A DNA stretch of 64,000 nt, taken from Glaucostegus cemiculus. Taxonomy: Eukaryota. The notes below the pieces were generated by a model. It was not told the DNA's origin. It ran no database searches and saw nothing but the letters and a program-made list of their open reading frames with translations. Location: NCBI GenBank assembly GCA_976551045.1, contig CDPCPM010000367.1, positions 1,674,001 through 1,738,000 on the forward strand, written 5' to 3'. How positions within the stretch are numbered: position 1 is the stretch's first letter; every line of letters begins with the position of its first letter. Shown here in pieces: positions 1,204 to 62,350 of this stretch. Position numbers and translations under genes: made by a program.

Positions 1204-1224
1204 AAAGGCTCATACTCAAAGTTC

Positions 1225-1300
1225 ATGAAGGTTTACAAACCACCAGCCTGTGCAAAGGAGGAGGTGAAGGAGGAAGAAGAAGAGGAAAGGATGCAGAGTT
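1225..1300 (+). mobile_element. Probable acidic C-terminal tail of the Harbinger transposase
   Basis: PPACAKEEVKEEEEEER follows the LINE insertion directly, on the same strand as 250-697. Confidence 0.45.
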
Positions 1301-1479
1301 GACTGTTCCTTTCTGGTTAGCTGGATAAAGAACAACTGATTGGACTGTGTTTTCAAAACTAAAACCCAATTCCTCATTCCATGATTCCAAATTACCTTCT
1401 TCCTGTTGGTATGTATCACAGCAACCATTAATTATGATGAGAAAATGGGAAACAACATCCTCCAGCTTTTACAAGAATT

Positions 1480-2340: not shown

Positions 2341-4519
2341 TACTCCAGCACTGTAACCTACCTACACAAGCAGAATATCCGCAGTGAAAACCGATCTTCC
2401 AGATGACATCTGACAGAGCAAACCTCTATTAGATTAAAAAGTAACACTTTCACATGCTGTCTACTCTGAAGTATTCTGTAGAGTGGGATTCAAGACTTGA
2501 AGTATACTGCCTGCCGAGTATTCATAAGTCAAATCATGTCACATTGCACATAAAAATAAACTGTTCACCTTTGTGCATTCCATTAGTTCCTGCCACTCGT
2601 ATAAAGTGCACCCCTGTGGTTACTGTATGGCTGATGGGAGAGAGAAGTGATCTTCAATAAGGGCAACACAGAAGCCTTGGAATGTAACCTTCAAGCAGCG
2701 CTAGAGTGGGGATCGAAGGCCTTGTCTGCAGACTGTCCCTTGTACAAATGCCTGGCGGTAGTCTGGGCTGGGGGGGTGGGCAGGCAACAACAGTGACTTC
2801 GGAGAAATGAATGGGAGGACAAGCAGGATCTTCCTGAGAAGGGAGAGCAGCTCTGATCCCCATGAAGCTACTGCCACTCCTACAGAGAATTGCCTAAGCA
2901 GACCTCATAACCCTTTGAAGGGGAGATTTATAATCTGCCTGCAAGCCCCATTACAGGCTGTTATCCAAACCCATTGAGATCCCTGTGCCATTATTTTGGA
3001 TTTTATTGAATTTAGCTCCCAAGATATTTTGTTGAGGCATACCATTGTGTTGAGAATGTCATGCCCCAACATTGGCTGACAGTAAAATTTAATACTTAGA
3101 ATATTTAACCTTGCTAAAGGATAAAAGGGCAGAATAAAACCAGCTATCTGATATACAACCTGGCTTTATTAACTTCAGTAGAAGTGTGTACTGCCCACTT
3201 TGCATCCCCTCCACTGTTTAGCTTGACCTCAGCTCAGTCCTGCAGCAGACAGTCATTTAATGCAAGGAAGGAAAATTTCTTCTCCGACTTCCTCCACAAT
3301 CAGTTAGTTTCCCAGCATCTGGTTCCCTTCATATTTCATTCCAAGATGAAAATGCACAGCATGAGGTACTGCAAACCCAAACAAAAGTACCTATTGACCA
3401 TTATCCTTGGCTTCCAGCACTACACCAATAACTTTCTGCTTCCTCTTGTATCCCACAGGCTTCAAATTCATTGATCTGTCATGTGGGAGTTTAACAAAAA
3501 AAATGTGTACACTGCAATACATCTACGCAGACTGTATAAGCTCAAACTAATTTAAAAGGAAGTGTGGGTGGGAATGAATACTGGCCTATTACTTGTAAAA
3601 GAAGGTTCTTCACCAATGTACAGCAGGAATCAGTTCCTGTCCTGTGATTCACTGATCTCTGCCATCCTAATGAAATTGTACACCAGTAGCATGCAGTGCA
3701 ATTTCAGAACTTATGATATCTTTATAGTACAGACATTCAAAAAAACTAATCCTGTCCCACTTTAGCTGTCATGTTACTTAATATTTTTCCAATTCAATGC
3801 TGATGAATGCTAGTTCAGCACACTAACTCTGCCTCGGATGTGCAGTTAAATCACATTTGCTTTTATTCCTTTGATACAATGCTTTAAGATTCTCCTGAAT
3901 CTTTTTTTTAAATCAACAGAACTTTTTGAAACCAGGATTGACTCCCTGTCAATTTTTAATCAATGGAAGTTTACTAATTACACATGTGCTTATTTAGGGG
4001 TAACTGTATTGTTTTTTTCAAATGTAAACGGCCAACCTCTTTAAATTCTGATAGGTTAATTCTCTCCTATCAACTGAGCCTCAACCAAGACCCTGTCAGG
4101 TACAGAGCCAAGCTACACTGCCTTGACCTTTGCAGCAGAGTTCTGATTCACCTGGAGATTTGATGGATGGACAAAAAGACTTTTCCACAAAATTTCGACA
4201 CAAGTTGTTTGAATATGGTGGCTTACCCAATGCCTTTAATTTTTGCAGACCCAGTTGATACAAGTATTTTGAGCACAGTATGCAGCCAAATTGATGTCTG
4301 CTACATATGCAATTGAAAGCAGGGAAGAAGTGATCTAACCAGTGATTAAGTGTCTGTAAAATTAATGAGACTTCAATGCAGTACTTACAAAGGCAAGAAC
4401 ACTTGAAGCAGCTGAACAAGGGAAGCAGGAGGTTAGGTCAGTAATGATAGGAATTGGTAGACTATTTGTGGTTTCCATGTTTGTGGTCAATTATTTTTAT
4501 ACTTCTTGCTTATTGCAAC

Positions 4520-4815
4520 ATGGAGTTCATTTAGCTCTTGTGCCCATGGCAGATCCTGGCAGAGTAAATCCATTAGTCCCATTCCCCCTCTTACTTCCCT
4601 GTTATCTGTTCTCTCACATTCCCATCTTCTACCTCAGGGGCAATTTTCAGTAGCCACTTAACCTATGAGCATGTCTCTGGAATGTGGAAGGAAACAGTAG
4701 CACCCAGCAGAAACCTACACGGTCACAAGGCAATTTCAGGAAGTCCACACAGACAGCACCTAAGGTACAGATCAAACTGGGGTCATTGGAACCATGAGAC
4801 AGCAACTCTAATAGC
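4520..4815 (-). mobile_element. Old V-SINE copy
   Basis: Diverged GGAATGTGG-AGGAAAC...CACCC...GAAACC core and head, like the younger copies. Confidence 0.7.
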
Positions 4816-7004: not shown

Positions 7005-8055
7005 CTCTCCCCATTCCAAGAATTAGTCTAGTAAATCTTCATTGCACTCCTACAATTGCAGATATATCCTTCCTTAGAAAGGGAGACCAGGCCTGTTTAT
7101 GATATTCCTGGTGTGGTCTTGCTAGAGCCCTATACAATGAAGACATCTTTACTCTCGTACTCAAATCCTTTTGCAATAAAGGCCAATATGCTCTTAACTG
7201 TTTGCTGAAACTGTGTGTTAACTTCTCCTAAATCATGTTCAAGAAGACCCAGGTCTCTCTGAATACCAACAGTTGTCAATCTCTCACCCTTTAAAAAACA
7301 CTTTGTTTCTTTTCTTTCAGTTTGGATGATGTCACATTTAAGATATAAGATATTTATTCATTAGTCACATGTACATCAAAACACACAGTGAAATGCATCT
7401 TTTTGCATTACTGAGAAGGTGCTGGGGGGCAGCCCACCAGTGTCGCTACTCTTCCGGCGCCAACATAGCATGCCCACAACTTCCTAACCCATACATCTTT
7501 GGAATGTGGGAGGAAACTGGAGCACCCAGAAACTGGAAATCCACACAGACACAGGGAGAACGTACAAACTCCTTACAGACAGCAGTGGGAATTGAACCTG
7601 GGTACATTCCATCTACCACGTTCTCTTCCATTCACTTGGCCTGTCTACATCTTCCAAAGCCTCTCAACCCACCCAACCACCCAGCTCGATCCCCTCATCC
7701 AGATCAGTGATGTAGATGGTGAACAGCTGGGACCTCAGAACTGATCCCTGCAGCACTCACTAATCACATCCTCCCATCTCAAAAACAACCTGTATATTTC
7801 TGCTCTCCATGTTCTGTCTATTAACCACCGTGATTCCTTCTGAAAGTCCAAGTACTCCACATCCTCTTCATCCATTCTGCTAGTTACAACCCCAAAAAGA
7901 CACCATTGGATTTGTTAAACATGATTTTCCTTTCATAAATCTATGCAGATTCTATCCAATCCTGTTATTATATTCTAAGTGCCTATTACCACTTCCTTAA
8001 TAATTAATTCTAGCATTTTTTCTGCTACTAATATCAAGCTAACTGACCTATAGCA
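7005..8055 (-). mobile_element. Old CR1 RT fragment, interrupted by a SINE
   Basis: Antisense CR1 RT motifs (YR.L.RP, SG.PQGSVL, QH.F.KGKSCLTN). Confidence 0.75.
7341..7601 (-). mobile_element. V-SINE (Rex-like tail family)
   Basis: tRNA B-box-like GGTTCAATTCC, core GTTTGTACGTTCTCCC...GGTTTCCTCCCACATTCC, tail TTTCACTGTGTG...GTACATGTGACTAAT. Confidence 0.9.
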
Positions 8056-8481: not shown

Positions 8482-9454
8482 TGATTTTCTCTCCTACATT
8501 TTGGGGTTACATTTGCTCCTTTTCAATCTGTGCAAACCATAAAGGAATCTATGCTAAGTTTGGAACATGACAAGAATGCATCCATTGAGTGAAATCCATT
8601 TGGGTTCATACTAAATTCACTGAGGTGGAAGGATAGAGTGCCAGCTCAGGTGCTGTCAGTCCTTTTTATCACATTTTAAATCGAATAAATCCTAAAATGG
8701 AACAATGGTCCATCGTGGTGAAGTGACTGAGGATGATGATGTATAATGCAGCAACACAAGGTATCCTCTGAGAAGAGAAGCTGGAAACACTAAGCCTTCA
8801 CTGAGCATTTACAGTGCAGTGCATTTAAAACTACTGATTGATAAAGCAAATATCCAAAAACTCATTCCTTCTTTCCTTTCCCCAAATTAGTTGCGGTGAC
8901 TCTTTTCGCAAGATGTTTTCATGTGGTATTATGGTAGAAGTTATATTTATGCTATTAAAACTGTAAAATATAGCTACCGTTGAAGCATTTTACTCACAAT
9001 TAAATTCTAAAAGCCTTTTTTTATTAAAATTTACATCACCACCTTTCTAAAATAATAAAATGTACATAATTAGATACACAGATCCCATCTATCAGTTTAT
9101 ATTGGTAACGCAAATATTATGACTTAATTACTCCAAGAGGTACACATCACAAATATACAACATAATCCTGATAATACTTAACAAAAATTTGCACTGAAAG
9201 GTTTGTGTTTTCCATTTTTCGCATTTTAAAACTACAAATCAATTTTCATGAACAAATCCTTTTGTAGGTTTTTTGAGAGAGCTTTTCACCTGGCTTATTT
9301 AAATTGAAACAATTGACAGCAACACTGTTAGTTTCTTAGTTTGAGAGCGTTTATTTGATGCTGTGTATCAGTACAACACCCACTGTCCTGCAGTAAATAA
9401 CACTGTTATCTTTTCCTTTCCTCCTACAGAAAATTTTAATGTTGCATTTCAATG

Positions 9455-10120
9455 CAACACACAAGGAGCTGGAGGAACCCAATGGGTCCAGGCAGCATCT
9501 GTGGAGGAAAATGGACAGTTGACATTTTGGGTCTGGACCCTTCATCAGGACTGGAAAGAAAGAGGGCAGATAGCGAGTATAAAAAGGAGGGGGGAAGAGG
9601 TGGAGCAAGAGCTGGTGTGTGATAAGTGGATCTGGATGAGGGGGGTGATCAACAGGTCGGGTGAGGGGTGGTGGAGCAGAGTCAGAAGCTGGGAGGTGTT
9701 AGGTGGATGTGACAAAGGACTAAAGCAGATGAAATCTGATAGGAGAGGACAGTGGACCATGGTATAAAGGGAAAGAGACGAGGCGGGGAACTGGAGGGTG
9801 GATGGGCAGATCAAGAGGGCAGGGGGAGGTGAAAGAGAAGGGGTGATGGGGCCAGTGGGATAAGGGGAAAGAAAGGGACAAAGGGGAGTGGTTACCAGAA
9901 GTTAGAGAAATCAATGTCAGGGTGTCAGTTTGGAGACTACCAAGGCGGAATATGAGGTGCTGTTGCACTAATCTGCATGTCACATCAATTTGGCAGGAGG
10001 AAGAGGCCATGGGCAACACGTCAGTTTGGGAATGGGAAGTGGAATTAAAATGGCTGGTCATCCAGCTGGTGTGTCAGATGGAAGAAAGGTGCTCGATAGA
10101 GCAATTCCCTCAATCTGTGT
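9455..10120 (-). mobile_element. Penelope-like element 3' part (GIY-YIG C-terminus plus terminal repeat with hammerhead-like motif)
   Basis: ORF 9720-10061 SHFNSTSHS...QQHLIFRLGSLQ. Minus-strand CAGTC-CTGATGA-AGGGTCCAGACCC-AAAATGTC at about 9516-9553. Confidence 0.85.
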
Positions 10121-10462
10121 CATCTCATCTGAGATGTCCTCCTTTTTCAGAAAATGGAGCTTCACCCCTGCTGTTACCAAAGGAGCCCTCACCTGCACCT
10201 CTTCTATTTCCCTTACATCTGCCCTCGCTCCATCCCCCATCAGACATAACAGGGACATAGCTCCCTTGGTTGTCACCTACCACCCTACGAGCCTAGGCAT
10301 ACAACATATCATTCTCCGCAACTTCTGCCATCTCCAATGGGATCCACCAGCAGGCACATCTCCCCCTCCCCTCCCACAGGGATCGCTCTCTCCGTGACTC
10401 CCTTGTTCACTCGTCCCTCCCGACCGATACCACTCTTATCCCTGCAACCGCGCAAAGTGTTA
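10121..10462 (+). mobile_element. Penelope-like RT/GIY-YIG linker fragment, inverted relative to the adjacent piece
   Basis: SEMSSFF...PLVVTYHPTSLGIQHIILRNFCHLQWDP in ORF 9990-10397. Confidence 0.8.
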
Positions 10463-17422: not shown

Positions 17423-18962
17423 AACCATAGAACCATAGAACAATACAGCACAATACAGGCCTTTTAGCCCACCATGTTGTGCCGACCTTCAAACCACACC
17501 TAAGACTATCTAACCCCTTCCTCCCACATATCTGTCTATTTTAAATTCCCCCATATGCTTATCTAACAAGCTCTTGAACTTGGCCAACATATCAGCCTCC
17601 ACCACCACCCCAGGCAGCACATTCCATGGGCCAACCACTCTCTGGGTGAAAAACCTCCTTCTGACATCTCCCTTGAACTTCCCACCTATTACCTCAAAAC
17701 CATGCCCTCTTGTATTGAGCATTGGTGCTCTGAGAAAGAGGCACTAACTGTCCACTCTATCTTTTCCTCTTAATATTTTGTATACCTCTATCACATCTCC
17801 CCTCATCCTCCTTCTCTCCAATGAGTAAAGCCCTAGCTCCTTTAGTCTCTCCTCATAATCCATACTCTCAATCCAGGCAGCATCTCGGTAAATCTCCTCT
17901 GTACCCTTTCCAACACCTCCACATCCTTCATATAATGGGGTGACCAGAATTAGACACAGTACTCTAAGTGTGGTCTAACCAGAGTTTTGTAAAGCTGCAT
18001 CATTATTTCACAGCTCTTAAACTCGATCCCACGATTTATGAAAGCCAACATCCCATAAACCTTCTTAATTACCCTATCCACCTGTGAGGCAACTTTCAGT
18101 GATCTGTGGTTATGAAACCCCAGATCCCTCTGCTCCTCTACACTGCCCAGTATCCTGTCATTAACCTTGAACTCCAGCTTGGAGTTAGCCCTTCCAGAGT
18201 GTACCACCTCTCACTTCTCCGGATTAAACTCTATTTGCCACTTCTCAGCACAGTTCTGTACCCTATCTCTATCCCTCTGTAAACTTTGACAGCCCTCCAC
18301 ACTATCCACATCACTACCGACCTTTATGTCGTCTGAAAACTTGGTAACCCACCCTTCCACACCCTCATCTAAGTCATTAATAAATACCACGAAAAGTAGA
18401 AGTCCCAAAACCGATTCCTGAGGGACTCCACTAGTCACAGCCCTCCAATCCGAATGCACTCCCTCCACCACAACCCTCTGTTTTCTACAGGCAAGCCAAT
18501 TCTGAATCCACACGGCCAAGCCTCCATGGATCCCTTGGCCTCTGACCTTCTAAGGAAGCCTACCATGCAGAACCTTGTTAAATGCCTTACTAAAATCAAT
18601 GTAGACCACATCTACTGCACTACCCTCATCAATCTGCCTGGTCACCTCCTCAAAGAACCCTTTCAGGCTTGTGAGACATGATCTTCCCTTCACAAAGCCA
18701 TGCTGGCTGTCCCTAATCAGTCCATGATCCTCTAAATTCTCATAGATTCTATCTCTTAGAATCCTTTCTAACAACTTGCCAACCACAGACATAAGGCTCA
18801 CTGGTCTGTAATTCCCTAGACTATCCCTACTACCTTTTTTGAATAAGGGGACAGCATTTGCCACCCTCCAATCCTCCAGTACCATTCCCGTGGCCAACGA
18901 GGACTCAAAGATCCTAGCCAACGGTTCAGCAATCTCCTCCCTTGCCTCGTGAAGCAGCCTGG
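17423..18962 (-). mobile_element. 5'-truncated CR1 LINE (RT)
   Basis: ORFs EDWRVAN...NYRPVSL...QHGFVKGRSCLT, SGVPQ.SVLG...KFSDD and [12 protein letters not shown], with an 8-mer (TTCTATGG)n tail. Confidence 0.95.
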
Positions 18963-19150
18963 ATGACTGCTTTGAAGAGCACCTCGTTTCAGTCTGGAGG
19001 GGAGCCCTGAGCTCTGCATTGCTTGCTACTTTAAGTCTTCATCCTACTCCCACTGTGCCCAATCTGTGACCTCTTGCACTAGTATAACAAGGCCTAATAT
19101 GAGCTTGAAGAACAGCACTTCATCTTCTGTGTGAGCAATTTTCTGAACAA

Positions 19151-20101: not shown

Positions 20102-23066
20102 AGGTTATTCACTTTCTCTGTTTGTATCAGAGCTGGTTGTTCTGTTATGGATAATTCGTCTGTAATTTTGTCTCAGTTTTTTTCTCTTCACCCCAAAACC
20201 TAACTTGCTAGGCATTTTGTACTGCTCAACATTTTGCAGCTTTTATGTTCTTTCTTTTGTGTTCTCTGAGATTCCTCATTAAATAATCAGTTAGATGACT
20301 TCATCTGCAGCTTATCCCCCATGGCAACCTTGGCCTCACTCTGTCAGAGATAGTCACTTTGTCCTATCTGTACCTCCTCCATCCTCGGCACAACTTAACA
20401 CTGTGCATTGGTCCAGATCCCAGCATCTGCAGAATTTCTTGTGTCCCCGCCTTTGTTTTCTCTCTTTCCCAGTTCTGATAAGCGTCCTTTGACTTGAAGC
20501 ATTAACTCTTGTTTCTTTTTCTATAGATGCTGCCTGACCTGCTGAGTGTTTCCAGCATTTTCTGTTTTTATTTCAGATATCCAGCATCTGCAGTTTATTT
20601 TTTAGTTTCATTTATTGATGAGAGGCTGTTTCCCTGGTTGGAAAACCAAGAACAAGGGAGCAGGAGGTTAGTCCAGCATAAATGGTGACCATTTATAAAT
20701 GAAATGGGGAGAATTCTTTTCTTCAGAGTCACCAGTCTCCAAAATTCTTTATTCGGACAGCTGTGGATATTTAGTTGATTGGAACTAAAGTCTGATTACA
20801 CTTTTGGCATATAGGCAATCAAGGCGTAATATGATGGAGCAGAAAAATGAAGTTGATATGGATGTTCAGCCGTGATATTGAATAGTGCAAACAAAATAAG
20901 ATGCAGTGAACTAACTGAATATGTTTCACTAAAGCGGTCGTCACTGTATAACATGGAAGACAGTTGTTTATTTATACCTCTGCAAAATGACCTACTTCTT
21001 CCCCTTGCTCAGCTTCTCCCTCACACAAAAGCTGCAATTGAAATGGAAATTCAACCATGATAGTGAATGATCTTTTAACAAATCGAACAAGATACAATGT
21101 ATTAAATATGTTTCATCAAACTGGCCTTCACCTGCAATCCTCAATAACTTTCACCTTTGCAACACTACCCAGTTCTCCTCAAATTCTGTTCCTCCCTCAC
21201 AAAAAGGGTTAGTGAATGTTTTTATTACTTTTAGCCTTGATTTCGCTAGTACCTGTGTTACTGGACTCCCATCTCTCTTCTTTCCCAAATCTCTATCCCT
21301 CTTACCTTCTCCATCCACGTATTGGTGTCCTTTCTTTTATAGATTACTTAATTTTATTTTAAGTACTCACTCACCATCCCCACTCTGGGCTGTATTTTGT
21401 GTGTCTTTCAGTCTAAGTGTGTTACATAAACATCTTTTATTGCTGAATCCTTGCCTCATGAGTGTGATTAAAGTATGAAGGATGGCCAGAAAAAAAATAA
21501 CTGTAAAACTATATTATTAAGTTTTTGCAAACCCATCAGACCAATTGCTGTTTTGCTCAAAGGGCCTTTTATTATGAATGCGTAGAATTCAGAGTAAAGG
21601 GTTCCTGCTTGCAGCTTGTCACTCCCTACACAGCAAGCTCCTAATTTAAATCATATAACAGTGGGAAGCTCCCTGCATCAGCACCTCACTGCAGAAAAAA
21701 GACTATAGTAATGATTGCTCCATTAAACTGTTCTACTTTAATAGGATCTTGCCTATCATGAATTGTGTTTGAAATTCTTATAATCTCCCAATGCCCTCTT
21801 TTGCAGAGGAACAAGGAGAAAGAGAAGGGATCAGGATGGAGCCTCAACATCCTTAGTAATATCCCATGTCTGCACAAGTATGAATAAAGAGCCAGACAGG
21901 TATAGACCATCAAGGGAGGTCTCTATTTAAGGAAAGCAAGGCTTAAATGGTCCCTTGGACATATTTTGAATGCCACTGCTGTCGGTTGACCCTCGTCATT
22001 ATCGGAAATATAAGATAATTTGCTACATATGTAAGTGATCAATATGATATCGAGAGAGAGAGAGAAATAATAAATACAATAATAAGTAAGACAAAGAACA
22101 TGAAAAGGCAGAATGGTGCAAATATTGTAGTGCAATCTGAAGTAGTGCAAAAAAAACCTAAAATGACGGTCATGGAATAACGGAGAGAGTTAGAGATGAG
22201 AGTGTGAGAACATGGTGGCATCACCAGGAAGGGGGTGTGAAAGAGATGATTGGTTCAGGAGTCTGATGGCAGTAGGGAAGAAGCTGACTGAGAGCCGCTG
22301 TTGCCATCAAGCATGCCTTAAAAAGAAAGTGGTAAATTTCTTGGAGGAAAACGTTTTGAGACACATATGAATTGATAGGCATCATCGCCATTTGTCAATG
22401 CCTTAAAATAGATAGTAATTCTCAGGGAAATCAAGCCCATCATCTCATTGTCAGCAGGAGACACAGAGACAGTAGAAGCACTGGGGAAGGCCTCTTTCAA
22501 TGGAGAAAGAGTTAGAGGTGACCATGTTGTGGATCAAACACCTGCTTAAAGGAAGGAATTCATGTGTGCCATTGGAGACATGAAGGTAGAATCTAACTGT
22601 AAGAAATCATGAGAGATTGATAAAACAAGGACCTTGTTATCCTGGTAACTTGCATATATATACCAATATTAACAGCCAAGCCCAAAAATCTGCAAAGAAA
22701 ATACTGCAAGTTGTCCTTGCATAACTATTTCATACAATAGTTGAAGCAAGGGAATTAATCAGAATAGGAGTCCACTCTCCTCTGGCACCCTACAAGGCCA
22801 CTTCATTTGCCTTCATTTACCACATGCTAGATTGGCTGACCAGAGGCTAGAGAATGGGATCTGGTCCATACCCTCATTTTACCAACATTATTCTTTGAGC
22901 AGACTTCTGCTCATCTATAATGTCTGTGAAGTTATCTTGAAAACACATTGAAATCCTTCAGTCAAAAGAAACCCCTGGGAAAGGAAATGCTTTTTTTTGA
23001 TGCCCATATGAAACAAAAGGATTCAGCAAATTCTGGCAGATAAGAGAATAAGAGAATAATAAAAAC

Positions 23067-23889: not shown

Positions 23890-24095
23890 TAATAAAACCA
23901 GAAGATGCCAGGAATACTCAACACACAGACAGTATCTGTGGACTGAGAAGCAGTCACCATTACAGGTCAAAGAGCTGACAAAGGCTCCCCAACCTGAAAC
24001 ATTAGCTCTGTTCCTCCTTCCACACATGCTGCATGACCTGCTGAAAGTTTCCAGCATTTTCTGTTTTTATTTCAGATTTCCAGCATCTGCGGTTC
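23890..24095. mobile_element. Penelope-derived short fold-back element
   Basis: Inverted arms AGATGCCAGGAATACTCA... and ...CTGCTGAAAGTTTCCAGCATTTTCTG, with a decayed CTGAC...GAAAC motif. Confidence 0.7.
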
Positions 24096-24717
24096 TTTTC
24101 CCCCCTGATTTTCAAACTGAAATGAGTGCTGGACCTACAGGTGAATGCAAAGGTCTTGGATTACTGGCAATAGGTTCTCCCTGCTGCTGGTCCAGAGGCT
24201 TGCTGGACCCACCTGTATTAAGCTGGGGAGTAGTCAATTGGAACCTGCACATGGTCAGATGTCAATGGATTTATAGGGCACAGAACTAGAAGGCAAAGGA
24301 AACAGTAAATTACATTTATAAAATAATTTTGCTTTTGTTTTATGTTTTCAAATGCAGTAATTCCAAATGTCTTTAATTTTGCTCAGGCGAGAGAGGTTAA
24401 CCAATAAAAAGGATAACAGAAGGAAGGTGAAAATGGGACAAGTTAAGGAGAAGGATGTCAATCAAAATGACGTGTAAATGGGGAGCAGAATCATTAGTAA
24501 TTTTTAATTTAAAAAAAATATTGTGTTTTAACTTAGTTCAATTCTAATATTTTCAAGTGCCACAGAATGGCAGAAATGTCTAAAAACTTTTAAAATAGCT
24601 TGCAGGTTTTACAAGTAAATCTCTGTCCCTAGCTATGCTGGCTGTCAAGGAGTGGAGCCTCCGTATCGCTGCCTAAGACCCAAGTGCAGTTTGGTCTACC
24701 ATGCTGGACTACCTCAA

Positions 24718-34283: not shown

Positions 34284-34992
34284 AAACATAGAACATAGAT
34301 ACCTACAGCACAATTCAGGCCCTTCGGCCCACAAAGCTGTGCCGAACATGTCCCCACACTATTAGGCTTACCCATAGCCTTCTACCTTATGTACTTATCC
34401 AACAGTCTCTTGAAAGACCCTATCATATCTGCCTCCACCACCATTTCCGGCAGCTTATTCCACGCACTCACCACTCTCTGAGTAAAAAACATACCCCTAA
34501 CATCTCCCCTATATCTTCACCCCAGCACCTTAAACCCATGTCCTCTTGTGGCCACCATTTCAGCCCTGGGGAAAAGCCTCCGACTATCTACCCTATCCAT
34601 ACCTCTCATCATCTTATACACTTCAATCAGGTCCACCTTCATCCTCCTTCTCTCCAAGGAGAAAAGGCCGAGTTCCCGCAGCCTGCTCTCATAAGGCATG
34701 CTCCTCATTCCAGGCAGCATCCTCGTAAACCTCCTCTGCACCCTCTCTATAGCTTCCACATCCTTCCTGTAGTGAGGCGACCAGAACTGAACACAATACT
34801 CCAGGTAGGGTCTGACCAGGGACCTATACAACTGAAGCAATACCTCCCGACTCCCAAATTCAATCCCTCGACCGATGAAGGACAATACACCATACGCCTT
34901 CCTAACCACGGAGTCAACCTGCGCAGCTGCCTTGAGCGTCCTATGGACTCAGACCCCAAGATCCCTCTGATCATCTGATCTGATCCCTCTAA
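34284..34992 (-). mobile_element. CR1 3' fragment nested in Rex1/Babar
   Basis: ORF 34517-34909 LYRSLVRPYLEYCVQFWSPHYRKD..., with an (AACATAG)n tail at about 34285. Confidence 0.95.
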
Positions 34993-35413
34993 GAGGGTTG
35001 AGAGCTTCAAGTTCCTGGGTGTGAACATCACCAACAGCCTGTCCCGATCAAACCACGCAGATGGCACAGCCAAGAAAGCTCACCAGCACCTTTACTTCCT
35101 CAGGAGGCTAAAGAAATTTGGTTTGTCTCCTTTAACTCTCACCAACTTTTACCAATGCAGCATAGAAACCACTATGTGGTTGTATCACAGCAACTGCTCT
35201 GCCCAGGACAGCAAGAAGCTGCAGAGAGTTGTGGACACAGCCCAGTGCAGCACAGACACCAGCGTCCCTTCCTTGGACTCTGTCTTTACCTCTCGTTATC
35301 TTGGTGAAGCAGCCAGCATTATCAAAGACCCCACCCATCCAGGACATTCTCTCCTCTCTCCTCTTCCATCGGGTAGAAGATACAGGTGCGTGAGGGCACG
35401 CACCACCAGACTT

Positions 35414-37612
35414 GGATGAGAGAAGAGTTGGCCCAGATTGATTGGAAATATAAGCTTGCTGGAGGGATGGCAGAACATAAATGGGTGGAATTTAAGCAAG
35501 TAATAAGGAAAATGCAGGATAGACACATTCCAAAAAAAAAGGTTTTAAATGGAAAAAGGGCACAAATGTGGATAACGAGAGAGGTGAAAGCTAAAATAAG
35601 AGCAAAGGGGAGGGCATATAAGGAAGCAAGAAAAAGCGGGAAAACAGTAGACTGGGAAACTTTTAAGAACCTACAGAAAGAAACTAAGAAGGTCATTAGA
35701 AAAGAAAAGAGAAATTATGAAATGAAATTGGCAGAGAACATTCAAAAGGATACTAAGAGTTTTTTTTAAATATATAAGAAGTAAAAGAGAGACGCGGGTT
35801 GATATAGGACCGATAGAAAATGATGCAGGAGAGATTATTATGGATGATAAAGAGATGGCGGAGGTGCTAAATCAGTATTTTGCGTCGGTCTTCACGGTGG
35901 AAGATATTAACAATATACCAGTTAGTCAAGGGTCTCGAGGGACGGAATTAAGTACAGTTAAGGTTACTAGAGAGAATGTGTTGGGGAAGCTGAATGGGTT
36001 AAAGACTGATAAGTCTCCGGGACCAGATGAGATACATCCCCGTGTACTGAAGGAAATAGCTTTAGAAATAGTGGAGGCATTAGTGATAATTTTTCAGGAA
36101 TCGATAGACGCTGGAGAGGTTCTGGAGGACTGGAGGGTCGCGAATGTAGTTCCATTGTATAAGAAAGGTGCGAGACAGCACAAAGGAAATTACAGACCTA
36201 TCAGTCTTACGTCTGTGGTGGGGAAGATACTAGAATCGATCCTCAAGGACGAGGTGATGGGATGCATGGAGGTGCAAGGCAAGATAGGTCCTAGTCAACA
36301 TGGGTTCATGAAGGGAAGATCCTGCCTGACCAATTTATTGGAGTTTTTTGAAGAAATCCCAGGCAGGGTGGACAAGGGAGAGGCCGTAGATGTAGTGTAT
36401 TTAGACTTTCAGAAGGCATTCGACAAGGTGCCGCACAAAAGACTAATTAGTAAGATGAGAGATCACGGAATAACAGGCAGGATAACAGAATGGGTGGAGC
36501 ATTGGCTGGATGGCAGGAAACAGAGGGTGGGAATAAAAGGTTCCTGTTCTGGTTGGCTGCCGGTTACTAGTGGTGTTCCGCAGGGGTCGGTGTTGGGGCC
36601 CCTTCTTTTTACCTTGTATATTAATGATTTAGACGAAGGAGTTAATGGGTTTGTGGCCAAGTTTGCAGATGACACTAAGATTGGGGGGGGGGAGTGGAGA
36701 GTATTGAGGAGACAGGAAAGTTACAGAGAGACTTGGATATTCTAGGAGAATGGGCGAAGAAATGGCAGATGAGGTTCAACGTGGAAAAATGTGCAGTTGT
36801 ACACTTCGGAAGTAGAAATGGACGGGCAGACTATTATCTAGAAGGAGATAAAATTGGAAGCACAGAAGTACAAAGGGACTTAGGGGTGCTCGTACAGGAT
36901 AACCTAAAGGTTAACTGCCAGGTTGGATCGGCAGTAAGGAAAGCGAATGCTATGTTGGCATTTATTTCGAGGGGTATAGTATATAAAAGCAAGGAAGTGT
37001 TGATGAGGCTATACGGGGCACTGGTGAGGCCTCACTTGGAGTACTGTGTGCAGTTTTGGGCCCCATACCTTAGGAAGGATGTGCTGATGTTGGAGAGGGT
37101 TCAGAGGAGATTTACTAGGATGATTCCTGGGATGAAAAAGTTTACATATGATGAGCGACTGTCATCACTTGGACTGTACTCGTTGGAGTACAGAAGAATG
37201 AGAGGGGACCTAATAGAAACGTAAAAGATGTTGAAAGGAATGGACAAAGTGAATGTGGTCAAGCTGTTTCCCTTGGTAGGGGAATCCAGGACTAGAGGAC
37301 ACAACCTTAGAATTAGAGGAAGCAGGTTCAAAACAGAGATAAGGAGGAATTTCTTTAGCCAGAGGGTGGTGAACCTGTGGAACTCCTTACCACAGAAAGC
37401 AGTGGAAGCCAGATCATTGGGGATATTCAAGAAGGAAATAGATAGATATCTAATTGGTCAAGGTATCAAGGGATATGGAGATAAGGCAGGGATTTGGACT
37501 TAGAATAGGTTTTATTTTCTCTTATCCTCTTTTTTCCCCACCCTCCCTTCCCTTTGGAGCAGACTCGATGGGCCGACTGGCCTGCTTCTGCTCCATTATC
37601 TTGTGATCTTGT
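35414..37612 (+). mobile_element. Young 5'-truncated CR1 LINE (2.2 kb) with near-intact RT
   Basis: ORFs 35386-35769, 35840-36745 (KFADD), 36694-37224 and 37228-37503 are broken only at a T8 run, a G10 run and one stop. (TCTTGTGA)n tail. Flanking GACTT duplication at 35409-13 and 37613-17. Confidence 0.97.
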
Positions 37613-39269: not shown

Positions 39270-39402
39270 CAGGCCTGATGCAGGGTCTCAAACCCAAACA
39301 TCAAACATCCCTTTGCCTCCACAGATGCTGCCTGACCCATTGATTCCTTCCAGCAGTTTGTTTTTGCTCCAAATTACAGCATGTGTGGTCTCTTGTATCT
39401 GA
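39270..39402 (+). mobile_element. Penelope terminal-repeat arm with decayed hammerhead-like motif
   Basis: CCTGATGCAGGGTCTCAAACCCAAAC...CACAGATGCTGCCTGACC. Confidence 0.7.
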
Positions 39403-44289: not shown

Positions 44290-47200
44290 CATAGAGTCAT
44301 AGAGTAATAAGGCATGGAAACAGGCCCTTCAGCCCAACTGGTCCATGCCAACCACAGCACCCTTCCTGCTAATCCCAGTTGCCCGCATCCGGCCCATAAC
44401 CCTCCAAGCCCCTCCACTCCATGTACCTGTCCAAATGCCTCTTAAATATTACAATTGTACTTGCCTCAATCATTTCCTCTGGCAGCTAATTCCAGGTACT
44501 CACTATTCTCTGTGTAAAGAAGTTACCTCTCAGGTCCCTTTTAAATCTTGCCCCTCTTGTCTTGTACCTATGCCCTCCAGCATTGGACTCCCTAACCCTG
44601 GGGAAGAGACTGATCGTCCACCTTATCCATACCCCTCATGATTTTATAAACTTCTATGAAGTCACCCCTCATTCTCCTACACTCCAAGGAATAAATATCC
44701 AGCGTCGCCAACCTTTCCCTATAACTTAGGCCCTCTAGTCCAGGCAGCATCCTTATAAATCTCTTCTGCACCCCCTCCAGCTTGACAATGTCTTTCCTAC
44801 AACAGTGTGACCAAAACTGTACACAATACTCCAAGTGCGGCCTCACCAGTGACTTATACAACTGTAACATAATGTCCCTACTCCTAAACTTGATGTCCTG
44901 ACTGATGAAAGCTAGTGCACTAACCGCCTTCGTCACCACCCTGTCTACTTCTGTGGCAGCTTTCAGCGAACTGTGCACTCGTACTGCCAGGTCCCTCTGT
45001 TCCACAACATGCATCAGTGCCCTGCCATTCACTGTATAGGCCCTACCCTGGTTTGAATGTCCAAAATGCATCACCTCACAGTTGCCATTCCTCAGCCCAT
45101 ATTCCTAACTGATCAACATCTCCTTGCAACTCATTGTAACCTGCTTCACTAAAAACAAGTCCCCCTAAGTTAGTATCATCAGCAAACTTGCTAATCGTGC
45201 CATGTACACTCATATCCAAATCACTTCTGTACATAATGGATAACAGAGGTCCCAACACTGACCCCTGGGACATCCCACCTGTCACAGACCTCCAGTCGGA
45301 GAATCAACCATCAACCATCACCCTCTGCTTCCTATCATCAAGCCAATTCTGAATCCACCTCGCTAGCACACCCTGAATCCCATGTGACCTAACCTTGCAG
45401 ATCAGCCTGCCATGCAGGACATTGTCAAAGGCCTTACTAACATCCATTGCCCTACCTTCATCTCTCCCCTTAGTTACCTTCTCAAAAAACTCCCAAAAAT
45501 TTGTCAGATGTGACCTCCCACACTCAAAACCATGCTGACTATTCCTGATCAGGCCTTGACTATCCAAGTAATAGTAGATCTTGTCCCTCAGAAATCCCTC
45601 CACTAACTTCCATACAACTGAAGTCAGGTTGTAGTTCCCTGGCCTGTCTTTGCTACCCTTCTTGAACAACAGAACAACATTAGCCACCCTCCAGTCTTCT
45701 GGAACTTCACCATTAGCAAATGACGAAGCAAATGACTCAACAAGGGCCTCCGACATTTCTTCCCTGACCTCCCATAAGGTCTGGGGGTGCACTTGGTCAG
45801 GCCCTGGGGATCTGACCACCTTAATGCGCTGTAGGGCTGCAAAAACCTCCTTCCTTATAATTATGCATATGATCCAAGACTTGGATCATATGCATAATTA
45901 CCCTCATTTCTCTGGCATCCGTGATATTCTCTTTAGTTAACACTGAGGGGAAGTAGACATTAAAAATCTCGGCCATCTCCTATGGCTCCACACATAGGCA
46001 GCCCTGATAGTCCTTAAGAGGACCTAGTCTCACCTGAGTCATCTTGTTACTGTTAATATAACTTAAGAACTTCTTGGGATTTTCTTTAACCTTGCCTGCC
46101 AAATCCATCTCATACCATCTTTTTGCTCACCTGACTTCCCTCTTAAGCCTGATCTTAAACTTTTTATATTCGTCAAGGGATTCATTTGTATCCAGCTGCC
46201 TAAACACGATATATGCTTCTTTCTTTTTCCTGACCAGAGCCTCGATATCTCTCATCAGCCAGGGTTGCCTGAACTTGGTATGTCTACCCTTCATCCTAAC
46301 AAGAACATGTTGCCCCTGGATTCTTAATATGATCCTTTTAAAACCCTCCAGCTTGCCAACTGTTCTTTTGCCTTTGAATAGAATTACCCAGACGACCCCA
46401 GCTATATCCTGCTTAATGCCCTTAAATCTGGCCCAGATCCAGTTCAGGACTTTAACCTGTGGACCTGTTCTCTCTTTTTCTATAACTATTTTAAAACTAT
46501 TAAAATTGTGGTCACTACCCAAACTGCTTCCCAGCTGCCACTTCAGTTACTTGGCCTGCCTCGATCCCTAAGAGGAGGTCCAGTATTGCTCCTTCCCGAG
46601 CAGCTACCTTGAACTTACTTGACAAATTCCATGTCATCGATGCCCTTTTTCACTCTGCGTGGCCCAGTCGATACCAGGAAAACTGAAATCTCCCACAAGC
46701 ACTACCACTATTCTCACAGCTACATGCAATTTCTCGACATACCTGCTCCTCAAGTTCCCGCTGACTACTGGGGGGGTCTATAATATAGCTCTGCCAAGGT
46801 GACCGTCCCCTTCTTATTTCTAAGTTCTACCCAAATGGCCTCATTAGATGATCCTTCAAGAATATCCTCTCTAAACACTGCTGCTATGTCCTCCCTTATC
46901 AAAAAGGCAACTCCCCCTCCACTCTTACCTGTTCCTCCATCACGCCTACAACATCAGTATCCTGGAACATTGAGCTGCCAGTCCTGCCTTCTCTCAGCCG
47001 TGTTTCTATCATAGACGCAATATCCCAGTCCCTAGAGGCAATTCATGCTCTCAGTTTGAGCATCTTACCTGTTTAGCTACATGCATTGAAATAGATGCAA
47101 TTTAAAGCAGTGGTCCTATCTGCCCTTTTACTGTAAACATGGCTATCCTGATTACTAGGTCTTACACTCTTTGGATGCCGTACGTACTCCTGACTTCTCA
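44290..47200 (-). mobile_element. CR1 LINE spanning essentially all of ORF2 (APE endonuclease plus RT), degenerate
   Basis: LNCIYFNA start at about 47100, GSDHN endonuclease motif (ORF 46127-46522), RT ORFs 45304-45819, 45076-45285 (KFADD) and 44592-45074, (ACTCTATG)n tail. Confidence 0.95.
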
Positions 47201-55882: not shown

Positions 55883-56165
55883 AGTGGGGAGGCTGTTTTG
55901 CAGAACGTCTGTGCTCTGTCCATAACCACAATCTGCATTTCCCCGTTGCCAGTCACTTCAACTCCCCCTCCCACACTATCACTGATACGTCAGTCCTCGG
56001 CCTCCTCCACTCCCAGGAGAATTCCAAGCGCAAACTGGAGGAACAGCACCTCATTTTCCATCCTGGAACCTTTCAGCCGAATGGCATGAACACCGAATTC
56101 TCCTACTTTAAGTAATCCCCATCCCCCTTCCCCAAAACCCCTCCCCACCACCATGCTTCTTCTCT
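55883..56165 (+). mobile_element. Penelope-like GIY-YIG C-terminal fragment
   Basis: CFAERLCSV...PVASHFNSPSH...RKLEEQHLIF..GTFQPNGMN.EFS.FK*. Confidence 0.88.
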
Positions 56166-56167
56166 TC

Positions 56168-58155
56168 TTCCACAGATTCACCACCCTCTGGCTAATGAAA
56201 TTCCCTCTCATCTCTGTTCTAAAGGGACATCCTTCTATTCTGAGGCTGTGCCCTCTGGTCCTAGACTCTCCCACCACAGGAAACATCCTCACCACGTCCA
56301 CTCTATTCAGGCCTTTCAATATTCGGTAGATTTCAATGAGATTCCCTTCTCATCCTTCTAAACTCCAGCGAGTACTGGCTCAGAACCATGAAACACTCCT
56401 CATATGTTATTTAATTCTTGGGATCATTCTTGTAAACCTCCTCTGGACCCTCTCCAATGCCAGCACATCCTTCCTTAGATATGGGGCCCAAGACTGCTCA
56501 CATTCTTCCAAATGTGGTCTGACCAATGCCTTATAAAGCCTCAGTATTACATCCTTACTTTTAAATCTAGTCCTCTTGAAACGAATGCTAACATTGCATT
56601 TGCCTTCCTTACTATTAACTCAACTTGCAAGTTAACCTTCAGGAAATCCTGCACTAGGTCTCCCAAGTCCCTTTGCACCTCCGATTTCTGGATTCACTCC
56701 CCATTTAGAAAACAGTCTACGCCTTTATTCCTTCTACCAAAGTGCATGACCATACACTTCCCTACGCTATATTCCATCTGCCACTTCTTTGTCCATTCTC
56801 CCAACTTGTCCAAGTCCTTCTGCAGACTCCCTGCTTCCTCAACACTACCTGCCCCTCCACCTATCTTTGTATCATCTGCAAACTTGGCCACAAAGCCCTC
56901 AATTCCATCATCCAGCTCATTAAAATATAACATGAAAAGTAGCAGACCCAACATCGACCCCTGGGGCAAACCACTAGTCACCGGCAGTCAACCAGAAAAG
57001 GCCTGCTTTATTCCTGCTCCTTGCCTTCTGCCAATCAGCCAATATTCTATCCATGTGTGTACCTTTCCAGGAACACCATGGGCTCCTACCTTGTTTAGCA
57101 GCTTCGTGGCACCTTGTCAAAGGCCTTCTAAAAATCCAAGTAAACAACATCCACTGATTCTCCTTCGTCTATCCTGCCTGCTACTTCCTCAAAGAATTCC
57201 AACAAACTTGTCAGGCAAGATCTGTCCTTAAGGAAAACATGCTGGCTTCAGCCTTTTTTATCATGAGCTTCCAAGTACCCCAAAACCTCATCCTTAATAA
57301 TATCTTACCAACCACTGAAGTCAGGCTAACTGGCCTATAACTTCCTGTCTTTTACCTTCCTCCCTTCTTAAGGAGTGGAGTGACATTTACGATTTTCCAG
57401 TCCTCCAGAACCATTCCTGAATCCAGTGATTCTTGAAAGATCACTACTAATGCCTCCACAATCTCTTCAGCTAACTCTTTCAGAATCCTGGGGTGTAGTC
57501 CATCCAGTCCAGGAGACTTATCTACCTTCATACCTTTCAGTTTCCCAAGCACCTTCTCCTTAATAATAGCAATTACACTCACTTCTGCCCTGCGACTCTC
57601 TCAAATTTCTGGCAATATTGCTGGTGTCTTCCACAGTGAAGACTGATGCAAAATACTTATTCAGTTCATCTGCCATTTCTTTGTTTCCCATTACTATCTC
57701 TCCAGTGTCATTTTCCAGCAGTCCGATGTCCACTCTTGCTTCTCTTTTACTCTTTATATATCTGAAAAAACTTTTGGTGTCTTCTTTTATATTGTTGGCT
57801 AGCTTACCTTCATATTTCATCTTTTCTCCCCTTATTGCTTTTTTAGTTGCCTTTTGTTGATTTTTAAAAGCTCCCCAACCCTCTAGCTTCCCACTAATCT
57901 TTGTACTATTTTATGGTCTCTCTTTTGCTTTTATGCTATCTTTGACTTCCCTTGTCAGCCACAGTTGTTTCATCCTTCCTTTAGAATGCTGCTTCTTCTT
58001 TGGGAAGAACAGATCCTATGTCTTCAGAATTACTCCTGCCATTGCTGCTCTAGCATCATTCCTGCCAGGGTCCCCTTCCAATCAACTTTGGCCAGCTCCA
58101 CTCTCATGCCTCTGTAGTTACCTTTACTCAACTGTAATACCAATACATCTGATAT
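56168..58155 (-). mobile_element. 5'-truncated CR1 LINE
   Basis: ORFs 57560-57820, 57352-57582, 56694-56981 (KFADDTK) and 55990-56319. Confidence 0.95.
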
Positions 58156-58712
58156 TAGCTTTAGATTACAGGTCAGAGCTTATTGGGTACATTTTAAATG
58201 TAATGAATGTTTTGCCTCCAATATCTTTTCAGGCAGAGAGTTTGAGACTCACAGTGCTCTTTGAATGATAAATAATTCCTCAGCCTTCTTCTATCAGTTA
58301 ATTTACCTCTGTCCCCTAACTTTTAATTCTTTCTGGCAAGGTAAAGAAGTCCTTCTTGTTCACCTGCCTGGACCTCATAAGTTTATACACTTTAGTTAAA
58401 TCTTCCTTGAACCTCCTTTATTCCAAACAAAACAGCATCATCTTAGTTGGTATCATTACTACAATTCTTCAGTACTAGCAACAAAATTGTGAGTCTCCCC
58501 TGCTCCCACCATTGCTATCACATCCTTCCTGTAATGTGCTGACCTCTAACTGTGGTCACAGTGAAATTACAGCTGAGATCCAAGCCCCGTTAAATGAGTG
58601 GCACAAGTGGTGAATTCAGTCCCCTAACATTTAATAGGAAGTACTTCAGTTGCTAGAAGGAATTCCATGTTAGGTCTACCATGCACACAATATTCCCAGG
58701 AAATTCAGTGGC

Positions 58713-59006
58713 ATAGAGAAACAAAGGACTGCAGATGCTGGAATCTAAATGAAAAATACAATGATGCTGGAGGAACTCAGCAGGCCAGGCAGCATCCATG
58801 GAGAAAAGCAAGTGGTCAACGTTTCAGGTCAGGATCCTTCTTCAGGACTGAAGATAGGAAAAGGGGAAGCCCACTATATAGGAGGGAAAAGCTCTGCTTT
58901 TTTATATAGTCCTGAAAAAGAGTCCTGACCCGAAACATTGACTGCCTGCTTTTCTCCACAGATGCTGCCCGGCCTGCTGAGTTCCTCCAGCATCATCGTG
59001 TTTTTC
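58713..59006. mobile_element. Penelope-derived fold-back element with two opposed hammerhead-like motifs
   Basis: Arms at about 58750-58850 and 58908-59006 are reverse complements. Minus strand has CTGAAGA-stem-GAAAC; plus strand has CTGAAAA-stem-GAAAC. Confidence 0.88.
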
Positions 59007-59167
59007 AGATCAATGACATAACTCTGCTTTTTTCAACATTATGCTTTGAAGTTATCTCACTTCCATTTCCAGGTTGTTGCATGTCACTCCAAAAATTTCT
59101 TCCATTGGTGGGCCACCTGGTGATCCTGACATGTGGAAAGTACAAAGGATGACATAGTGGAAAGGGA

Positions 59168-59455
59168 CAAGACAAGACATCTTCATTAGTCACATGTACT
59201 TCAAAACACACAGTGAAATGCATCTTTGTGTAGAATGGGGGCAGAACACAAGTGTTGTCATGCTTCCAGCACCAACGTAGCATGCCCACAGCTTCTTAAC
59301 CCGTATGTCTTTGGAATGTGGGAGGAAACCAGAGCACCTGGAGGAAACCCATGCAGACACAGGGAGAACGTACAAACTCATTACAGACAGTGGCTAGAAT
59401 TGAACCTGGGTTGCTGACGCTGAAATAGCATTACGCTAACCACTACACTACCATG
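59168..59455 (-). mobile_element. V-SINE (Rex-like tail family)
   Basis: Full head, core and tail. Confidence 0.9.
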
Positions 59456-62134
59456 AACTACCATGAACTTGGACTACAATATTTTAAAGGACAGTCATTG
59501 AGAATCCCTGGATTACAAGGTCTTCTCAGCACAAAATTCAAATGGATACCTGCTTGGTATATTAAAAAACCTGCACTCTTGGGCACCACCACCTCGATCT
59601 CCAGCCTGAAATTTTCCTGACCCTATGATCCTTGAAAAAGAAAGCTCCCCCATCCCCAAATCTTGTTCTCAATTAATTACAGCATTTCCTCCTGAACGTT
59701 CTTGAACAATGCCAGTCCTTCCCCTTCCAAGCCTGAGTTAACAATGCTCTTCTCTTGCTCCAGATCTTAATGACCCCAACGTCTTCCCAAATGCAGGTCT
59801 CCAATACACCGACTAAGCCTATGGATGATCTCCTGGATCTGGTCTTGGAAGAGGAGAACCAAGATGCACATTTCCATCTGCCAAAGTATATAATGCCCAT
59901 TCTGATTCAACCGAACTGTTGGCCATTCTAACCCTTGACTCTCAGCACATGATAATTTCCAGCACAGTATTCTTTTAGTGCAGCAAGCAAAACTGTGGGT
60001 TGTGAGAACTTCATACAAGCATCAAGGCAAGTTTCTATTACTGTAGAAAAGCAGTGACACATAAAACAGAAATTACATATATATTCAATTGAAATGCATT
60101 CATGCACTACATTCAGTTTGGTTAGGTATGCAAATTCTCCTGGACGACTGCAGGCCGGCAATGTAACACATCTGTCCAAGAACAGGAAACAGCACAGACT
60201 AGCAAAGTTTAGTCGTGAGCAAACTCTCAGAATTCATCAATTGTGATCAAACAAAGACAGCTACATAGCTTTGTTAAAACCATGTTCAACAAATTTAAAA
60301 GTGTTATTTGAAGAAAGGACAAATAGAGATCAAAGGGAAGCAGCAGATGTGAAAGATGAAGATGAAGATTTCTTCCATGAGGCTAGCTGCAAAAATTCAG
60401 GCATGTGCTACGAAAGGAAATGTGGCAACATTGATCGAAAGTTTGCTAGGGTCAGGTGATGAAAAGTTTATGTAAATGAGGACTGCCCGTATTTAATAAG
60501 GGTTGAAATGATGTATTACAGGAGTCAACAGTGGCACTAATTTGTTTACAGATAAATAAATTCACACATGTTCATAGGTTGCGTAAAGGAGCCAATAGCC
60601 ATATTAGCAGAAGCAACAAGTTAATTTGCCACAGCGGCTCAGTTGGCAATGGTGCAGTGAACCATTAATCAAGGTATGAGCTGCTGCCAGGATAGAAGTC
60701 ATGGGTCTGCATTCTTCAGTGAGGTGCCAGTCAGAAATAAACAATTTGGGTGAACATGGCTTCCTGGTAACAGCCCTTCCCCTCCTTTTCCTTCTAACCT
60801 CCTGTCTTAGTATTCTCATTCTTTCAGCCATGCTGTTTTCCAAAGGGAACGCTACTAACTAATTCGTGTCTGAGAGCAAATGGTTTATGCAGACACTTTG
60901 AAGTCAGCTCAAAATCTTTCAGCACCTGCCACACAAGTCCCCACAGATTAATGCAACTTGAACCAACTGTGGAAACATTTGCAGAATCAGAGCAACAGCC
61001 CCTCCCCAACCGCACCCCCCCCCCCGCAAAAATAATCAACCAGCAACTAAGCTGCAACTAGCCAATGATCCTTTGAAATAGCACTGGTGAGAGGTTCTTC
61101 TCACTGGAGAATGCTTGCTCAGTTACATGATTGAAAGAGGCTATTACCTGTAACTTCCAGCTCTGACGTTGCAGGTCCAGTTTTAATACATGTGTTTATC
61201 CTGCTTGCTTTTGCTGGACACTCACTGCACGTAATTTGTCCTCGCAATGTAATGTCTGCCACAGTTTGCCCTGTAAATGTGCAGATATGCCACCATTTCA
61301 GTGTTTCAGGAACACCGGTAGCCCTCTAAATATTGGGGCTAATGATACCATTCCTTGACACCCAAGTTCTATGTACATATCGATGTCCATAGAACTAATA
61401 AAGATATCCTATCCTCCATCCCCAAATTCATTTTCCCTTGAAAGCAGCCTTTCATTCAATTATTCTGTGGCTGCCATGGGGAGTTGCTGAAGATATGACA
61501 CCCATACCAAGATCAGCATGGCAAAGATACAGCAGTCAGGAGCTTCTCAGGCAGCTCGCATCCAGAATCCCACAGGTCCCATTCTGGCACACAATTCTGG
61601 CCGTAAAACACCATATGACTGGTTTTAACATATCTTTGAGCAATTTTTGAGAGGGGATCTAAATGGGCATTCATGGTCTATGCAACACATGCTCAGTACA
61701 CCAAATAGAGGGTAAAGTCCAATTTCTAGTCTATCGTAAATAATTGAGGACCCAGTACAAATCCTTATGGGACACAATTAGTTATTTCCTTCCAATGTGA
61801 GCATCTTCTTGCTATCTCTGCTCTCTCTTTTTTGCTAGCTAACCAATCTCCAATTCAGGTCAATAATTTGCCTTCAGTTTCATGATCCTTAATTTTAGCT
61901 TGCAAACTCTTAAACAGAACCTTATCAAAAATACCTGGTCCATCCCATTAAAGTGACATCCATGGAGCTTCCTGTGCCTATTATTTTATTACCAGTTCAG
62001 AAATTTCAGATATGACTCTATCCAATCCACAAATACGGATGCTGTCAAAGGTCAATGATGAGAGAGATGAAACAGAATACAGCATAAGCAATAATATCAT
62101 CAGGTTTGTATCCAAATGGTGTTCAGGTTCCTAA

Positions 62135-62350
62135 AGAGACACAAGAGACTGCAGGTGCTGGAATCTGGAGCAATAAACAACGTGCTGGAAGAACTCAGAA
62201 GGTCATGCTGGTCATCTTTATACTGGCCATCTCACCTCTCCACTCTTAGTCCTGATGCAGGGTTTCAACCCGAAACATTGACAATTTATTTCCTCCCACA
62301 GATGCTGTATGCCCTGCTGAGTTCTTCCAGCACATTGCTCGTTGCTTCAA
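62135..62350. mobile_element. Penelope-derived fold-back element
   Basis: Arms GTGCTGGAAGAACTCAG and CTGAGTTCTTCCAGCAC; CTGATGC-AGGGTTTCAACCC-GAAAC at 62252-62276. Confidence 0.85.

Follow-up and report, generated by a model that had tools for sequence, protein, structure and literature searches.

Insertions of Penelope-like elements (PLEs) have been described in which one 5'-truncated copy is inverted and in which a 30-40-bp tail often occupies one end (PMC8557442), and the Pen2a_Av and Pen2 derivatives presented in PMC3846280 combine inverted pseudo-LTRs (pLTRs) and a tail with a target-site duplication and junction palindromes. A Penelope-type protein studied in vitro cuts and extends both target strands, with two adjacent start sites defining the tail (PMC11167929), and the origin of the inverted ends and the one-sided tail is, by the accounts given in PMC11167929 and PMC8557442, still not fully worked out. 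Dual minimal hammerhead ribozymes lying about 100-700 bp apart on opposite strands were noted in 2014, and the minimal hammerheads assayed in that work did not cleave as monomers and showed low cleavage as dimers (PMC4209133). Cleavage by the hammerhead of the Anolis element PAc depended on protein and on G8, and the motif was dispensable for insertion in vitro (PMC11167929), and GUU is given as one of the cleavable triplets (PMC3138052). Retrozymes, as portrayed in PMC7229834 and bioRxiv 10.64898/2026.07.22.740005, are direct tandems with same-strand hammerheads (canonical ones in PMC7229834) and circular RNA.

We analysed a fold-back in a stretch of 64,000 nt of Glaucostegus cemiculus DNA (the window). 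It is a decayed inverted Penelope stump, real and ordinary, with a layout already described for PLEs. We are confident that it consists of head-to-head 5'-truncated 3' ends of an abundant PLE family carrying an endonuclease (EN), likely derived from a single insertion that has since decayed, and that its hammerheads are likely inactive. The inverted arms (58750-58849 and 58908-59007), estimated at about 100 bp in an earlier note on this DNA, are 100 nt each, 87% complementary and 58 nt apart, and both match the 3' end, or pLTR, of a Penelope-like family reaching RT and GIY-YIG frames, confirming the Penelope origin that the note had proposed. Identity to the family majority is 94.9% for the long arm and 94% for the short arm. 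The two arms differ from each other at 13 of 100 sites, all of them transitions, and have no derived change in common, a pattern that decay would produce in the absence of selection for pairing. Because both arms are cut so short, no coding sequence is left in the fold-back; no stop-to-stop frame of at least 100 aa overlaps it, in agreement with the earlier note, and the long double-stranded RNA anticipated there is indeed predicted if the region is transcribed (fold z-score -14.8, with 0 of 100 shuffles folding equally well).

Like the EN+ Penelope insertions described in PMC8557442 and PMC3846280, the window copy has a head-to-head inverted pLTR, a tail at one end, heavy 5' truncation, a putative duplication around the whole unit and a palindrome or microhomology at the joint. 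It differs from the EN+ units published there in that its arms are too short for any coding sequence, and the duplications of the Glaucostegus family measure 11-20 bp as against 8-10 bp in the rotifer examples. The coordinates of all features are collected in Table 1.

Table 1. Features of the window fold-back and its flanks (positions in the window; family positions count from the 3' end of the element).
Feature	Position	Strand	Description
Putative target-site duplication, left copy, decayed	58705..58715	+	last base in common with the element end
Long arm	58715..58892	-	sense, 5'-truncated copy of the element 3' end, family positions 1-178
Penelope tail	58715..58749	-	35 bp, restricted to the long arm; the element's 3' terminus is at 58715
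Minus-arm minimal type I hammerhead	58815..58850	-	CUGAAGA/GAAA core and CG palindrome intact, GUU site
Inversion junction	58891..58907	+	GC microhomology, 9-nt parent piece in opposite orientation (positions 181-173), TATAT piece
Short arm	58908..59007	+	second copy of this 3' end, inverted and lacking the tail; family positions 135-36
Plus-arm broken minimal hammerhead	58908..58943	+	G8-to-A at 58917, G16.2-to-A at 58937, A-C mismatch in stem II
Putative target-site duplication, right copy, decayed	59010..59020	+	9/11 identical to 58705-58715

A scan of both strands of the window for CUGANGA, GAAA and UH in combination with stems I and II gave a single match, the minus-arm hammerhead, which reads as the earlier note had quoted it. 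C3 corresponds to 58845 and H17 to 58818, and the predicted cut would lie between 58818 and 58817. The motif passes the core test and fails the strict stem II test: in the family register stem II is decayed (G-U, G-C, A-C, U-A), G10.1-C11.1 being replaced by G10.1-U11.1 and accompanied by an A-C mismatch, and in another register a 3-bp stem (A-U/G-C/G-C) is possible. The plus-arm motif was found at the position assigned to it before; its layout is not equal to that of the minus arm, as G8 and the stem III palindrome are lost. The sequence CUGAAAA, quoted previously for the plus arm, results from the exchange of G8 in the catalytic core and not from a change at the free N7, and the substitution of G16.2 leaves CA in place of CG, a loss of the palindrome that had escaped the earlier note. 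The family majority has G at these two positions (65 of 69 arms at G8, 45 of 69 at G16.2). In PAc, G8C abolishes cleavage of the motif (PMC11167929), the mutant of that paper being G8C and the plus arm of the window being G8A. The hammerheads of the window fold-back are damaged and likely inactive; since the core on the minus strand is intact, a putative activity might be retained in a transcript that lacks the antisense arm.

Compared with the metazoan minimal hammerheads reported in PMC4209133, helix II has 4 bp and the triplet is GUU family-wide, and the window motifs are decayed. A covariance search with Rfam, suggested earlier as a check, gave two chance matches and no hammerhead family for positions 56000-62000 at E values up to 10, a null result to which we give no weight because the motifs are minimal and without stem III. 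On the minus strand a pyrimidine tract with a CAG end is located at the 5' strand of helix I (58848-58880), and a TATATA box precedes it by about 30 nt; in the short arm this tract is gone. Both tract and CAG resemble an intron end that PMC4209133 places at helix I of the element in Drosophila virilis.

Each strand of the fold-back has one sense hammerhead, and read-through transcription would produce the antisense arm before the sense arm. The predicted pairing probability of the hammerhead stems was at most 0.006 in every context tried, and freeing the hammerhead fold within the whole fold-back is predicted to cost 46-51 kcal/mol for the minus and 40-41 kcal/mol for the plus strand. Forcing this fold is predicted to cost 12-17 kcal/mol in the long arm alone and 9 kcal/mol in the majority arm, and as the majority arm itself carries a penalty the costs of monomer folding are only relative. 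For the stem III duplex, values of -3.5 kcal/mol (minus/minus), 0 kcal/mol (mixed pair) and +2.8 kcal/mol (plus/plus) were predicted. In these models the sense hammerhead on each strand is predicted to be locked in a 100-bp duplex by the antisense arm. Moreover, the plus and minus motifs are mutually antisense and thus do not provide a same-strand tandem dimer as used by retrozymes.

The parent family is abundant. Exact copies of a 22-mer taken from its hammerhead region number 4,803 in the genome, against none for the control, and a search of the 2.85-Gb genome with the element resulted in 4,871 first-look candidates, 40 of which were scored; most scored copies align with the long arm only and then extend into longer sequence. 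The majority over 69 arms from 56 loci consists of stem I, CUGAAGA and a further A, then a stem II of 4 bp with G10.1-C11.1 as its closing pair, followed by GAAA, CG and UU, and thus has CUGANGA, GAAA, NUH, stems I and II and the palindromic 15.2-16.2 of a minimal type I hammerhead, the class named in the earlier note. Mean identity of the 69 arms to this majority is 92.4%; core and palindrome are kept in 24 of them, and 11 keep both stems as well (strict test). The cleavage triplet of the majority is GUU, with U at position 17 in all 69 arms; GUU is a weaker cleavage triplet. Among 105 element ends, 58 are located at family positions 1-3 and 26 at positions 31-37. PAc (Poseidon, Anolis), too, prefers two 3' ends, which are separated by about 35 nt and lie about 90-125 nt downstream of stem II (PMC11167929); it is an active element of the Poseidon clade assayed in vitro, and the window element is a fossil that probably belongs to another clade.

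Longer family copies extend upstream into GIY-YIG, CX4CxxC linker and RT frames. A GIY-YIG frame with CCHH residues was found in L017, L065 and many of L070-L098 by reading the motifs directly, the CX4CxxC linker lies between RT and EN in copies such as L071, L074 and L083, and L087 runs from RT through to the 3' arm (arm identity 88.5%; RVT_1 with an E value of 9e-6 and 25.9 bits, below the curated cut-off of 29.6). Pfam GIY-YIG reached an E value of 0.24 on L065 and gave no match on the L017 or L087 frames; given this weak support, the endonuclease call rests on motifs read by eye. All eight loci that were extended by about 6 kb break off within the endonuclease frame or shortly ahead of it, and the RT frame was reached only through two further searches beyond them. 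The arrangement of RT, CX4CxxC and C-terminal GIY-YIG with CCHH in the longer copies is like that of Neptune-type PLEs, a clade for which PMC8557442 describes a CX2-5CxxC linker ahead of the GIY-YIG domain; taken by itself, the linker motif, which Nematis has as well, points to a family of the Neptune type. A literature search, conducted without Repbase and Dfam and implying no claim of absence from print, listed no paper evidently on a hammerhead-bearing Penelope family of sharks.

Some long copies have further peculiarities. One of the five long loci fetched, L129, contains a partial tandem in direct orientation (731-4671, minus strand). Its two sense hammerheads are separated by 3.0 kb, and the second retains core and palindrome; the sequence past the first tail may be the 5' coding part of the element. 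On contig C524 (L108, L109, L122-L124) a long element copy occurs at twelve listed places, and the five copies fetched are 98.7-99.1% identical across the whole 3.1 kb, which suggests a recent segmental expansion or a large tandem array. In L127 a long element copy lies between inverted repeats of 489 bp (1699-2187 and 7313-7801) that are 97% identical and 5.1 kb apart.

Head-to-head inverted pairs were found in 27 of 85 distinct loci examined, which is a lower bound for long units as only 1.5 kb of flank was available per locus. By set, the pairs amount to 12 of 29 loci for the whole-element query, a fraction biased upward by the query, and to 9 of 27 and 6 of 29 for queries with one arm or the endonuclease. 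Before counting, L011, L031, L039, L054, L069 and the re-fetched L061-L068 were dropped as duplicates, and the 83% cut-off or the choice of the best pair removed L046, one pair of L048 and the second pair of L056 (matches to other families or double matches). Among 100 listed places of the 22-mer there are six close pairs, all head-to-head and 153-1,523 bp apart. The 27 fold-backs span 173-2,119 bp, and no two of them have both inner breakpoints in common. Nineteen combine a tail with a tail-less end, the latter at family positions 26-40, six combine a tail with an eroded end, two are of other types, and none is two-tailed. Of the 27 pairs, 19 are flanked by a direct repeat of their own of 11-20 bp with a duplication score of at least 8.5, the 99th percentile of the null obtained from mismatched flanks being 7.7. 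An RNA 5' end at position 135, for which a TATATA 26-31 nt upstream and four breaks at 134-136 might speak, is not supported, because the four fold-backs came from the query-selected set and none of the 15 unselected fold-backs breaks there.

Partner arms of the same fold-back share derived changes at 0.0121 per site, compared to 0.0069 between insertions (permutation p 0.0002), and non-CpG-like variants at 0.0044 compared to 0.0008 per site, about fivefold more, both values being based on the 21 of the 27 pairs whose arms reach position 100. This excess points to one source element per insertion, and it fits self-priming or some gene conversion as well.

The 58-nt spacer of the window copy is derived from the parent, comprising the inner part of the long arm, the GC microhomology, which sits inside AAAAGC/GCTCTG at the joint, the 9-nt piece and TATAT, the last of which is probably parent sequence as well. 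The short arm thus probably started near position 183 and lost two internal pieces, and the junction would reflect two internal deletions or template jumps. A 21-mer across the junction occurs once in the 2.85-Gb genome, and the only full-length match to an 81-bp junction query among the 40 scored of 163 candidates was the query itself. The putative duplication of the window copy has a score of 6.0, within the null of the unanchored test; an end-anchored test, designed only after the duplication had been seen, gave p ~0.003. Differing breakpoints, individual duplications in 19 of 27 pairs and a unique junction thus describe independent truncations rather than a family with conserved ends and spacer, the outcome that the earlier note itself had named as refuting its interpretation.

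The same note had interpreted the fold-back as a non-autonomous, retrozyme-like Penelope derivative with a ribozyme motif per strand. On a rival reading the fold-back would itself be a mobile unit resembling retrozymes or MITEs, with fixed ends and spacer, mobilised by Penelope enzymes and using one ribozyme per strand. Like animal non-LTR retrozymes (PMC7229834; bioRxiv 10.64898/2026.07.22.740005) it is short, non-coding and related to PLE pLTRs and has a type I hammerhead. Seven loci span 275-307 bp, four of them with an inner breakpoint at 134-136, position 178 recurs as a breakpoint in three loci, and L002, L010 and L021 retain core and palindrome on both arms. However, the seven loci were selected by the shape of the query and no two of them are alike in both breakpoints, the 134-136 breaks are absent from the two unselected sets (0/15), and position 178 falls in an AAAAGC/GCTTTT microhomology. 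Unlike the direct repeats with same-strand hammerheads reported for retrozymes, the window unit is an inverted pair of minimal motifs on opposite strands, mutually antisense and with the plus motif broken, and its junction is single-copy, rendering a mobile unit of this kind barely credible. Equally hard to credit is a hairpin or ribozyme retained by the host, be it as a source of dsRNA or siRNA or as an RNA-processing site: the very stable predicted fold and the intact minus-strand core would suit such a function, but the 13 unshared transitions include no compensatory change, other copies have diverged to a similar degree (mean 92.4% to the majority) and the plus core is broken. It is also very improbable, if by a shade less so, that two independent insertions or a later rearrangement brought two element ends into a back-to-back position. 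Copies of the family are dense and the putative duplication of the window copy is weak, as this explanation would allow; against it, the polar layout, head-to-head with one tail, recurs in about one third of the loci, one duplication flanks the pair, and long and short arms show equal divergence from the majority (94.9% and 94.0% identity).

We tentatively favor, as a possibility that stops short of a probable one, twin priming by a dimeric Penelope RT-endonuclease, in which one start would always be at the tail end and the other 35 nt further in, and the products would be joined at microhomology. The GIY-YIG nuclease of the element would make a staggered cut in the target, and RT would prime from both cut strands, one for each start site of the tail, with RNA from one and the same source element as template. 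The two cDNAs would stop early and be joined at a short microhomology (GC inside AAAAGC/GCTCTG in the window copy), and repair would leave a target-site duplication around the pair. The hammerhead would be a passenger of the parent pLTR, in which its activity would require dimerisation or the help of protein. Self-priming, in which nascent cDNA or an antisense template folds back at a junction palindrome, as put forward in PMC3846280, in place of priming on two strands, is in our view rather unlikely. Palindromes or microhomologies are present at the junctions of the window copy, L003 and L038, and the roughly fivefold excess of shared non-CpG-like variants in partner arms is as expected of fold-back copying, albeit compatible with both models. 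In L002, L005, L006, L021 and L055, however, one arm extends far past the inner end of the other, in either direction, with a palindrome-free joint. Moreover, simple fold-back copying alone gives no reason why the second arm should stop 31-37 nt before the tail end, a stop that probably marks a second start site, and the Penelope-type protein examined in PMC11167929 extends both strands from two adjacent sites.

The single locus matters little, being one decayed copy among thousands with a layout and opposite-strand minimal hammerheads that are already in print. Some value lies in the family, whose many dated insertions, flanked by clear duplications, would allow statistical testing of how inverted ends and tails form; the one-tail rule (0 of 27 two-tailed) and the excess of shared variants make it a natural data set for twin priming versus self-priming. 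For scans, the locus is a caution that Penelope stumps mimic designed double-ribozyme hairpins.

Within the window, 46 of 61 long stop-free frames were scanned with Pfam, an approach that would miss small exons, and yielded four RVT_1 matches and one ALKBH8_N match, none near the fold-back. RVT_1 frames at 18214-19038, 35726-36742 and 45307-45885 are probably LINE fragments, and the ALKBH8_N match (34979-35416, E value 5e-10) adjoins an RT frame; in fish genomes, matches to this Pfam family often fall on LINE-derived sequence. More diverged Penelope end fragments are located at 20456-20594, 24019-24098 and 39317-39400. At 9452-10450 the end of a related Penelope family with a CUGAUGA-type remnant is followed by coding sequence in the opposite orientation, as read by eye, and this region is likely a longer inverted insertion. 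Finally, a second fold-back stump, from an older related Penelope family with 74-79% identity to the present one, is found at 62135-62337; it consists of a tail arm and an inverted arm in which the remnant of a hammerhead is broken, and there may be a decayed duplication.
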